Position numbers and translations under genes: made by a program. The notes under the pieces are model-generated. The model was given only the letters and a program-made list of their open reading frames with translations, was not told the origin of the DNA and ran no database searches. DNA of 26,008 nt from Candidatus Methylomirabilis sp. (lineage in GTDB: Bacteria; Methylomirabilota; Methylomirabilia; Methylomirabilales; Methylomirabilaceae), in the NCBI GenBank assembly GCA_041498975.1, contig JBGQJI010000023.1, forward strand, positions 1-26,008, given 5' to 3'. Each line of letters starts with the position of its first letter. Position 1 is the first letter of the stretch. Shown in pieces: positions 10,082 through 12,048 of the stretch.

Positions 10082-10232
10082 GTCCACTACGATCCCCGTT
10101 CCTGCTCCGTGCAGCACCTCCCCTTGACAGGGAGGGCGCTCGTCTCTTGCCCCCTCCCCCTCGATGGGCGTCAAGGGGGGGATGTCTTGATAGAACGTCT
10201 GACGCAGGACACGAGGATGGCGCAGGTTTTCA

Positions 10233-10260
10233 TTGACAGGGGGGGGAGCGATTATAGCCT
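10233..10260 (+). promoter_or_regulatory. Putative sigma70 promoter with a G8 tract in the spacer
   Basis: TTGACA (10233-10238), 16-nt spacer beginning with 8 G, TAGCCT (10255-10260). Confidence 0.55.
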
Positions 10261-10339
10261 CGGGTCCCCAGGTACTGCACGGGCTCAGCGCGTCCACAGG
10301 CAATTGGAAGCAGAAGACCAAACGCACAGGAGGAGTGCC

Positions 10340-10900
10340 ATGAACAAGACGAGGATCATGAAAGCGCTCTACGCGAGTCTGATCGGGATCGTGGCGGTGC
10401 TCATCGTCGTGCCGCTGGCGGCTGCGGGAGACAGAGCCTTCCCGAGCTGGGACAAGCAGATCAACAACACAAAGCGGTTTAAGGTGCTGAGGGACTTCGC
10501 CGGCGCCGCCGTCCTGGACAGGGAGACGGGCCTCGTCTGGGAGCAGTCGCCCGAGACGGCGCCCAACCCTACGACCACCCAAGCCTGGCTCGCCGCGCAA
10601 TCGAGTTGCAACACAAGGACGGTGGGCGGGCGCTTCGGGTGGCGGCTCCCCACGATCCAGGAACTGGCGAGCCTCATCGACCCGAACAACCCTGGTGGAA
10701 ATCCGGATTTACCCCCCGGCTATCCCTTCAGCAATGTGGCGTCGTCCTCCTACTGGTCGGCGACTGCCAACGCCGACCCCGCCCATACCAACCTCGCGTG
10801 GGTCGTGGGCCTAGACAATGGCAGCGTGAGCAACGAGGATAAGGGGGACCCGCTCCACGTCTGGTGTGTGCGCGGTGGACAGGGGGTCGATCCTCAGTGA
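10340..10900 (+). CDS. Exported DUF1566 (Lcl C-terminal/C-type-lectin-like) protein; possible DGR target
   Basis: AGGAGG RBS, signal peptide, VLDRETGLVWEQ, GWRLPTIQELASL, YWSAT, AWVV, VWCVRGG. Confidence 0.9.
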   Translation: MNKTRIMKALYASLIGIVAVLIVVPLAAAGDRAFPSWDKQINNTKRFKVLRDFAGAAVLDRETGLVWEQSPETAPNPTTTQAWLAAQSSCNTRTVGGRFGWRLPTIQELASLIDPNNPGGNPDLPPGYPFSNVASSSYWSATANADPAHTNLAWVVGLDNGSVSNEDKGDPLHVWCVRGGQGVDPQ

Positions 10901-10922
10901 TTTGGTGATTTGAGTGATTTGT

Positions 10923-11057
10923 CCCTCGATACGCCACTCCCGTAGTGGCTACTCGGGATGATCGGAGGACGCCGGCAGAGCTGCTACTTTCCTTCCGTTC
11001 GCCCTGAGTAGGCGGCGCGAAGCGCTGCCGTATCGAAGGGCTACTCAGGATGATCGG
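10923..11057. repeat. REP-like cluster left of the GIY-YIG gene (inverted pair plus half unit)
   Basis: Unit CCYTCGATAC-[hairpin]-TACTCRGGRYGRWCGGA at 10923-10966, inverted unit at 10994-11040, half unit at 11041-11057. Confidence 0.85.
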
Positions 11058-11065
11058 GGGAAAGG

Positions 11066-11380
11066 GTGGCGCGGCCGTTTTTTACGTACATTCTGCGATG
11101 CTCGGACAGATCATACTACGTCGGGCATACGGATGAACTCGAGTGTCGGCTGGCAGAGCACGAAACGGGGGCGACCTGCGGCTACACGGCCGCTCGCCGA
11201 CCAGTGCAACTTGTTTGGTTTCAGGAGTTCCTGACCCGGGAGGAGGCAAAGGCGGCGGAGGCGCAGATCAAGAAGTGGAGCCGCAGGAAGAAGGAGGCAC
11301 TGATCGAAGGCAGGATGGAGGAGTTGAGAGCGGCAGCGCGCAAGGACTGGGTTTCCTACCGACAGCGCAGGGCCAGGTGA
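11066..11380 (+). CDS. GIY-YIG nuclease (UPF0213/YhbQ-like)
   Basis: FTYILRCSDRSYYVGHT, RLAEH, YTAARRPVQL, EAQIKKWSRRKKEALI. Confidence 0.92.
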   Translation: MARPFFTYILRCSDRSYYVGHTDELECRLAEHETGATCGYTAARRPVQLVWFQEFLTREEAKAAEAQIKKWSRRKKEALIEGRMEELRAAARKDWVSYRQRRAR

Positions 11381-11387
11381 CACAGAT

Positions 11388-11509
11388 CCTTCGATACATC
11401 CCTTCGGGCTTACTCCCCTCGATACGGCTTGTGAGCCTACTCAGGATGGTCGGAGTTATGGAATCCGCTCGCCCTGAGTAGGCGGCGCGAAGCGCTGCCG
11501 TATCGAAGG
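11388..11509. repeat. REP-like cluster right of the GIY-YIG gene
   Basis: Truncated unit 11388-11415, full unit 11416-11454, inverted unit 11464-11509. 11469-11509 is identical to 10999-11039 (41 bp). Confidence 0.85.
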
Positions 11510-11612
11510 ATGGCGACGTGAACAACGACGATAAGACGAACACGAACCACGTCTGGTGTGTGCGCGGTGGGCAAGGGGTGGACCCTCAGTGATTCGGTGA
11601 TTTGCGTGATTT
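11510..11612 (+). pseudogene. Orphan second copy of the DUF1566 3' end (variant C-terminus plus GTGATTT tail)
   Basis: Aligns without gaps to 10818-10920 (16 mismatches in 103 nt by hand count). Encodes GDVNNDDKTNTNHVWCVRGGQGVDPQ*. Confidence 0.85.
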
Positions 11613-11643
11613 GATGATTTCGGCTCTATTCTGTTGGCTAAGG

Positions 11644-11683
11644 GGGCCGGGCTGCCATCTGGCAGCCCGGCCCTTTCTCTTCT
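11644..11683 (+). terminator. GC-rich hairpin with pyrimidine tail (intrinsic terminator or DGR-type hairpin)
   Basis: GGGCCGGGCTGCCA-TC-TGGCAGCCCGGCCC followed by TTTCTCTTCT. Confidence 0.75.
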
Positions 11684-11690
11684 TGTGCTA

Positions 11691-12038
11691 GCCTGCCACT
11701 TCGGCAGGCTCAGTGCGCCGCCTGAGCGGAGCCTGTCCTGAGTCTTACCGAAGGATCGGTGGTGGGTCATTTTAATCGCCAGTCTAGAATTGTCATCCTG
11801 AGCGCAGCGAAGGATCTCGGACCTCATAGCCTTTACAGCGAGATTCTTCGGCTACGCCTCGGAATGACCCGTTGGTAGTTTCAAACTGAGCCACTACCGA
11901 AGGATCGAAAGGGTTGAATCGACCGGGGAAGTGTGGTACCGTCACGATCACATGCGGGTAACCGAGTGCGGGCTCTTGCAAGCCAATGGTGCCTGTCACT
12001 TCGGCAGGCTCGGTGCGCGGCCTGAGCGCTGTCGAAGG
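11691..12038. repeat. Further REP-like elements upstream of selA
   Basis: GCCTGYCACTTCGGCAGGCTCRGTGCGCSGCCTGAGCG at 11691-11728 and 11991-12028. Inverted pair GTCATCCTGAG..GAAGGATCTC (11792-11818) / GAGATTCTTCG..CTCGGAATGAC (11840-11868). Confidence 0.8.
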
Positions 12039-12048
12039 AATGAATGGA

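Follow-up and report, generated by a model that had tools for sequence, protein, structure and literature searches.

Features of the locus analysed here are known from several described DGR systems. In Treponema denticola, chromosomal lectin-fold targets with adenine-specific variable regions (VRs) also occur in isolates without a reverse transcriptase (RT) and a template, some targets are truncated, and the core has been gained and lost repeatedly; all of this, taken from the accessible parts of that account (PMC4891356), recurs at our locus. The same applies to the category 'd' or CLec2 targets (DUF1566; Legionella LdtA type), which are short DUF1566-only proteins with a C-terminal VR and an AAC-rich template according to the available portion of Wu et al. 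(PMC5758913). Non-adjacent targets are described there as well. In that portion, non-A changes and in-frame indels next to AAC runs are common in DGRs, as they are also present at our locus, and a downstream hairpin or cruciform is reported for a minority (34%) of DGRs. Machinery-less loci, diversification in trans and MITE-like hairpin repeats degrading DGR parts, all with counterparts here, are described for Thiohalocapsa PB-PSB1 in the available part of PMC10907252. In BPP-1, as far as the accessible text of PMC3240598 goes, the sequence upstream of the VR is dispensable, and a 5'-truncated VR still homed at cryptic 5' sites. According to the accessible portion of PMC12875486, transcribing the target affects homing only mildly, which is consistent with a silent tip serving as a target. 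Remote targets escape the survey approach of PMC8144416, as is stated there.

The window (the whole stretch of 26,008 nt that was analysed) is contig C23 of a host genome (G000) of 2.68 Mb in 241 contigs, estimated to be 84.9% complete. It contains an intact lectin gene and, behind a nuclease gene, a second copy of the end of such a gene that lacks a start codon and a gene body (Table 1). The variable ends of the former and the latter are, respectively, referred to as VR1 and tip 2 hereafter. The N-terminus of the intact protein is hydrophobic and, by eye, signal-peptide-like. Its AlphaFold model (pLDDT 85.9) has a C-type-lectin fold with the VR at the C-terminus, as is characteristic of DGR targets, and the top Foldseek match was the C-terminal domain of Legionella Lcl (8q4e, E=1e-5); Treponema TvpA (2y3c) was matched at E=0.05. 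In the sequence search against the PDB, nothing significant was found for the 186-aa protein singly, and the profile gave E=0.046. The product is predicted to be exported and to bind a ligand, through a surface that was first randomised and later became fixed.

Table 1. Coordinates of the features at the locus, named according to the interpretation favoured in the text
Feature	Position	Strand	Remarks
Putative DGR target gene, 186 aa, Lcl_C/DUF1566	10340..10900	+	Pfam PF07603, E=1e-24
VR1	10748..10878	+	6 inserted nt, lacking in the sister VR and in the Nitrospiraceae templates
GC-rich 24-nt core, IMH-like	10855..10878	+	3' boundary of variation; same in both copies
Post-stop TGATT repeats, copy 1	10898..10921	+	Also behind family targets, including the complete DGR L129
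Left REP-like hairpin repeat cluster	10922..11061	.	Includes 46-nt repeat 10994-11039
Single-domain GIY-YIG nuclease gene, 104 aa	11066..11380	+	Pfam PF01541, E=4e-17; hairpin repeats on both sides
Right hairpin repeat cluster	11381..11509	.	46-nt repeat 11464-11509 at the deletion junction, identical in L018
Headless VR tip (tip 2)	11510..11592	+	42 nt template-like, core, target-type tail with stop; no start codon, no gene body
Post-stop TGATT repeats, copy 2	11590..11625	+	
Host terminator-like hairpin	11641..11676	+	Right end of the island; flanks the island on both sides in L018

A small island, 10082-11640, lies between a zinc-finger gene and selA, at a terminator-like hairpin of the host. 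The lectin and GIY-YIG genes were found in none of the 18 genus relatives having the upstream zinc-finger gene (1.5 kb per locus examined), while selA lies downstream within the locus in 12 of these 18, and contig joints that skip the island in two runs (X4 and X5) agree with this reading. At 11644-11673, the hairpin stem is perfectly paired over 13 bp (z=-4.65; 0 of 200 shuffles as good). The same GC hairpin stands 3' of the zinc-finger gene in the island-less genus relatives (13 of the 18 loci by regular expression, the remainder by eye), and in the sister lineage L018, described below, it stands on both sides of the insert; the two facts together identify the island. The presence of the hairpin in relatives without the island also means that it is host sequence. 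We therefore rejected it as evidence of a DGR: the perfect GC stem claimed in the earlier note is real, but its value as an independent sign of a DGR is lost. With respect to a homing hairpin, tip 2 is followed by this host terminator-like element, and copy 1 by REP-like hairpins alone. Some other observations concern the surroundings. In a more distant relative (L055:5590-6354; ~79% identical), this chromosomal site also carries a lectin gene, which is cut by the contig end, and a 75-nt stretch upstream of it is 98.7% identical to 10094-10168 of the window. REP-like palindromic repeats of other types occur at 11691-11880 and 11991-12040, between the island and selA, and very high contig depth was seen at 11775-11845 in all four runs of one contig comparison.

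The GIY-YIG gene and the hairpin repeats between the two copies are missing from the earlier note. The start of copy 2 coincides with the last base of the 46-nt repeat 11464-11509, and a second GIY-YIG homolog is encoded on another contig (C16) of the same genome. The arrangement of a small single-domain GIY-YIG gene (104 aa here) with hairpin repeats on both flanks is shared with the Ssn nucleases. As presented in the accessible part of PMC11893778, these are site-specific ssDNA nucleases of the cd10448 clade, flanked by their own repeats; here the likeness is one of gene arrangement alone. It is our guess that the unit took part in the deletion that produced tip 2. Post-stop TGATT repeats are directly followed by hairpin repeats, sometimes with a GIY-YIG gene, in the window (10922-11509), in L026/L031, in L021 and at the loose end at 11602 in run X7. 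The hairpin repeats behind targets in several lineages possibly reflect an insertion preference or the use of homing hairpins.

The two copies form a repeat pair whose description in the earlier note was borne out by our alignment: in 104 gap-free columns, 10818-10921 and 11510-11613 are mismatched at 16 positions, ten of which fall in the first 37 nt. Seven of these ten VR1/tip 2 differences are at positions that are A in copy 2, and the other three (G/A, C/G and C/G) are not. The 24-nt core (10855-10878 and 11547-11570) is identical between the copies, and past it only four coding mismatches, all synonymous, and two after the stop are found, which also agrees with the earlier description, as does the presence of TGATT-type repeats behind both stops. 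This post-stop motif was found in 11 of the 46 loci carrying the core. In the Nitrospiraceae templates L129-L131, the core is the same save for 1-2 nt and divergence sets in straight after it, as is expected of a GC-rich IMH boundary. The 6-nt insertion of VR1 sits in a zone of the kind found beside AAC runs. The hypergeometric p value of the adenine bias is 0.052 for the first 37 nt, a stretch picked after the fact, and 0.01 over the 104 nt. Since 16 of the 37 bases are A, the bias is weak, and the window pair alone suggests a DGR origin without showing one.

Comparison with a sister lineage was more informative. L018 and L019 represent one metagenome locus in two assemblies, so that two independent alleles of tip 2 are available in total. 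Both show the whole layout and the deletion junction as in the window. The host genes of the sister differ by ~8% (94/1140 and 98/1246 nt), and the body of the lectin gene at 50 of 423 nt. In tip 2, a clear concentration of change is seen: 10 of 42 nt differ between the window and L018, whereas the DNA separating the copies has 15 differences in 651 nt and the tail 7 in 89 (Fisher p=2e-6 for the tip against these two together). Nine of the ten differences are at adenines of the window (p=2e-4), and they fall on codon positions 1, 2 and 3 four, six and zero times, respectively. The VR1s of the two lineages differ at 19 of 69 nt (10790-10858), and the sister VR1 differs from the window tip 2 at eight sites, all at A (p=1e-4). 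Differences at template adenines and at codon positions 1-2, as are typical of DGR targets, were thus found in all three comparisons (8/8, 9/10 and 7/10 at A), in which tip 2 serves as a proxy for the template, and this proxy rests on the homolog P0013. Because non-coding DNA offers no selective reason for such a pattern, the pattern in tip 2 is, judging from the sequences, a footprint of adenine-specific retrohoming. The two lineages share the junction in addition to showing the A-specific differences, which would date the rewriting after the loss of the gene; the headless copy was thus likely rewritten after that loss. The dating is blurred to some extent: the segment 10859-11509 is 97.7% identical (2.3% different) to L018, whereas the host genes are ~92% identical, and this greater likeness points to a recent exchange or homogenisation of the repeat/GIY-YIG interior between the lineages. 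Each copy retains its own tail variant in both lineages.

What kind of sequence tip 2 holds was suggested by its translation. Positions 11512-11571 translate into the end of P0013 at 20 of 20 residues. This protein record, found among the 120 listed homologs, ends in an asparagine-rich, template-like stretch. Tip 2 agrees with P0013 at 13 of 13 scored columns, while the other 59 standard-spaced homologs keep at most 9; the product of the column frequencies for the unmutated state is 6e-7, the columns being assumed independent. On account of these matches, an unmutated copy of the template in target position is the best reading of tip 2, the cognate template being known as the protein record P0013 alone. 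The proposal of the earlier note that tip 2 is a decayed template thus holds in one respect, since its 42 nt equal template sequence (judged by translation against P0013), and fails in another, since its tail is of the target type and the sister carries mutations in it. Between tip 2 and the Nitrospiraceae templates, 7-9 of the 42 nt differ, 5-6 of these not at A; those templates are relatives rather than the cognate one. The template copy may have entered tip 2 through low-error homing or gene conversion into a second target, or through a template-target fusion. Comparable remnants were also observed elsewhere. At L137:5620-6260 (G342, minus strand), a target gene has been disabled by a stop and frameshifts; its VR resembles a template and is followed by a target tail, and no DGR RT was found in its genome. 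L076 (G242:C8, ~3227240, minus strand) is a headless VR of the same family with the tail type of tip 2, beside duplicated genes, and in L077 (G240) the core and tail alone are retained; no DGR RT was found in these two genomes, either.

The family was also examined outside the genus. A degenerate pattern matched four of the 301 genomes of the Nitrospiraceae sample, and three of the four carry avd and/or a template and RT, in the order target-avd-template-RT; the fourth is the genome with the dead target L137. In the complete DGR L129/L138, all 16 template/VR differences are at A, and in L130, 21 of 32 are. The Nitrospiraceae templates pass into the RT start right after the core, which would fit the short end of P0013. 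L026 and L031 represent the same tandem locus, composed of a target, repeats, a GIY-YIG gene and a second intact target; their VR1s differ by 22 changes (20 of them at codon positions 1-2) and a 3-nt indel, and the following 1675 nt by one change. Among 10 distinct VRs, chosen with lysine and tryptophan anchors as selection criteria, 10 of 19 third codon positions are invariant, compared with 2 and 4 of 19 at the first and second positions, respectively. Avd-like sequence lies beside four of 51 homolog loci and an RT beside two (one locus), all of them broken or cut by a contig end. In a genus relative that is 99% complete (G012), the opening codons of avd come after a broken target, and a DGR RT was not found. 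On these sequences, the family consists of DGR targets, and its avd-template-RT machinery often decays. The reading of the earlier note that the two copies are remote DGR VRs, one of them decapitated, is therefore supported by both the sister lineage and the complete DGRs of the same subfamily. Three further arrangements were noticed. At L027:3130-4150, a target and a truncated avd are enclosed by two ~40-nt direct repeats beginning at the 3' end of a guaA-like gene upstream, which suggests that an island integrated here and that its template and RT have been lost. L082/L124 (G224:C131), in the same class, has a DUF1566 target, an avd-like gene, a template and an RT of another template family. 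P0002 and P0026 each carry two tandem lectin domains with a VR-like end on each.

The machinery itself was not found in the host genome. For a DGR RT, searches with PF00078, P0121 and the RT of L131 gave 0 matches, which at 84.9% completeness means not found rather than shown to be absent; for avd, PF05635 and the Avd fragment of L027 gave 0 as well; and blastn, tblastn, motif and AAC-run scans for a template returned the two VR copies alone. The locus behaves like a remote or orphan DGR target pair and is not a complete DGR cassette, for which an RT, a full template with its own 3' end (IMH*) and avd would be needed. Twenty genomes of the genus, eight with a completeness of 90% or more, yielded no DGR RT. 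Ten of the 20 had RVT_1 matches; these did not resemble DGR RTs when inspected, and the DGR-RT queries confirmed none of them. One genus relative (L071, G007:C34) has a 299-aa RT beside an HTH gene, which by our reading is retron- or defence-like and not a DGR RT. Among 251 genomes of the class, DGR RTs occur in six, with templates of another kind wherever seen; an all-AAC template pattern, 3 nt off the proxy used later, had no match there, and the DNA of tip 2 matched five of the genomes, in all cases VR-type tails and no template. Two exact motifs of the window had no match in viral contigs, and scanning these with P0013 and the Avd fragment gave distant DGRs alone. When RTs fused to this template were sought, a single distant RT, P0121, was obtained.

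Variation within populations was assessed in 8 of the 24 listed runs, those with a word share <0.5 being left out; all were compared as contigs, which drop rare variants. Tip 2 shows no difference in X1, X2, X3, X6 and X7 and one in a contig of X4, and VR1 shows none in X3, X4 and X5. In X1, X2, X3 and X6, tip 2 lies inside one unbroken contig of 270-279 nt; X1 and X2 may be the runs from which the window stems. The tips are thus fixed in seven of the eight runs where covered, and the exception is a VR1 variant in X8: a contig over 10514-10883 has four differences in 370 nt, at least three of them in VR1, and one of the three visible ones is at C. A 174-nt contig of X7 matches 11508-11570 with five differences and ends just past the core. 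The protein pairs P0122/P0001 and P0003/P0123 are each one residue apart, in both cases in the VR.

On this basis, we regard it as probable that both copies are VR ends of a DGR target family, written in trans by an RT and a template that are now gone, and that the headless copy was rewritten after it had lost its gene; the locus is probably orphaned and frozen. The course of events may be pictured as follows. It would start from the island as it is seen, with its lectin gene between the zinc-finger gene and selA at the host terminator hairpin. The island may once have had a second target, like the tandem locus L026/L031, of which a deletion from the hairpin-repeat end of the GIY-YIG unit would have spared the last 27 codons. 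Template-derived sequence would later have been deposited in this non-coding tip, mutated in the sister and unmutated here, as the shared junction and the A-specific differences suggest. The machinery would have been an avd-template-RT module, such as is seen beside the Nitrospiraceae targets, often in decay. Finally, this trans-acting core would have been lost or have left; the tips are nearly fixed now, and so, it seems, is the binding surface of the lectin.

Other explanations deserve weighing against this one. It is unlikely, to our mind, that a DGR core in an unassembled or unbinned part of the genome continues to act in trans and slowly diversifies the two tips, which would then be ordinary remote targets. 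An incomplete genome in 241 contigs would leave room for it, and the X8 variant, the single-residue VR differences in the cluster pairs and the X7 contig with five differences would be its products; yet a near-identical template should then have surfaced in X1, where the two VR contigs alone matched tip 2. Moreover, the tips are near-invariant across runs, the 20 genus genomes yielded no DGR RT, and one X8 change is at C. As regards origin, tip 2 might be the 3' half of a template fused through the shared core to the tail of a downstream target, with loss of the RT. The repeat/GIY-YIG unit would in that case have removed avd and the 5' half of the template, and the sister would have been mutagenised later from another template copy. 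The native order of the family (target, then template), the unmutated state of tip 2 (6e-7) and P0013, which looks like the converse fusion of a gene body with a template end, speak for this possibility. It requires, however, a second target downstream of the RT, and none is present in the three cassettes examined; the dead target L137 joins a template-like VR to a target tail without such a fusion; and there are tandem targets with a GIY-YIG unit between them. We consider this origin rather unlikely.

That tip 2 is a silent cassette with which the expressed gene swaps its binding tip, whether through gene conversion or through recombination, was proposed in the earlier note and now appears very improbable. 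The direct repeats, 692 nt apart with the identical 24-nt core and a nuclease gene between them, would suit such an exchange, and P0125, which joins another N-terminus to the C-terminal half of the sister protein, indicates that paralogs may recombine, unless it is a chimeric assembly. However, none of the 13 joints listed for four runs skips the 692 nt, each copy has kept its tail, and no protein with this gene body and the end of tip 2 is present among the hits examined. Silent-cassette antigenic variation is recognised by recombinants between cassette and expressed gene and by several donors; here there is one donor, and it spans the last third of the VR alone. The remaining explanation is a plain remnant of a tandem paralogue, shaped by ordinary drift with no DGR involved. 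It was to follow, according to the earlier note, from a lack of RT, template and read-level variation. That lack is largely what we found, and the adenine bias of the window pair is weak; nevertheless, the sister comparison contradicts the conclusion. Drift in non-coding DNA would not focus ten changes in 42 nt at A and at codon positions 1-2, and the complete cassettes mark the family as DGR targets, so that this explanation is scarcely credible and is refuted by L018 unless L018/L019 is misassembled.

A wider picture may be considered, which we put forward as doubtful rather than likely: DGR core modules of this family may travel on short-lived islands and rewrite any resident tip that they come across, the non-coding tips recording raw, unselected output. 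Targets and headless tips would then accumulate on chromosomes and be diversified only during visits of an avd-template-RT module, and the raw output would include unmutated template copies (tip 2 and L137) as well as heavily mutated ones (tip 2 of L018). Headless tips are free of protein selection; a collection of their alleles would make the raw spectrum of mutations of an uncultured DGR measurable, and the tips would preserve template sequence after the machinery is lost. The locus also brings to light DGR targets of a DUF1566 family, from sediment bacteria, which surveys anchored on RTs would overlook.

In comparison with the described systems, several differences are seen. The T. denticola targets are of the FGE-sulfatase type with truncated genes of 58-136 aa, whereas the window has a DUF1566 target and a non-coding tip of 27 codons; it also adds two alleles that date rewriting after truncation, which the accessible parts of that account (PMC4891356) do not contain. 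Unlike the CLec2 systems, as far as the available portion of PMC5758913 describes them, the locus has a hairpin derived from the host, and the template and RT were not found in its genome. Thiohalocapsa has a complete locus per class in the genome and read-level activity according to the available part of PMC10907252, and neither was found here. The BPP-1 experiment, in the accessible text of PMC3240598, concerned a laboratory deletion of 20 bp and a hairpin adjacent to the IMH, whereas here about two-thirds (~2/3) of the VR were lost in nature and the hairpin starts ~50 nt past the stop; by analogy with the 5'-truncated VRs described there, the headless tip would have stayed a homing substrate. 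A search of part of the literature listed no paper that deals with DGRs of this lineage or with a non-coding tip rewritten in nature; the supplements of PMC5758913 and PMC4891356 may contain such cases. Orphan and truncated DGR targets are already known, and as a system the locus is not new. Beyond these it contributes an indication, from two natural alleles, that a non-coding tip was rewritten, together with a preserved template copy, suggesting that a DGR goes on rewriting a short non-coding tip after the gene has been lost, a natural case of what is otherwise met as an engineered result.
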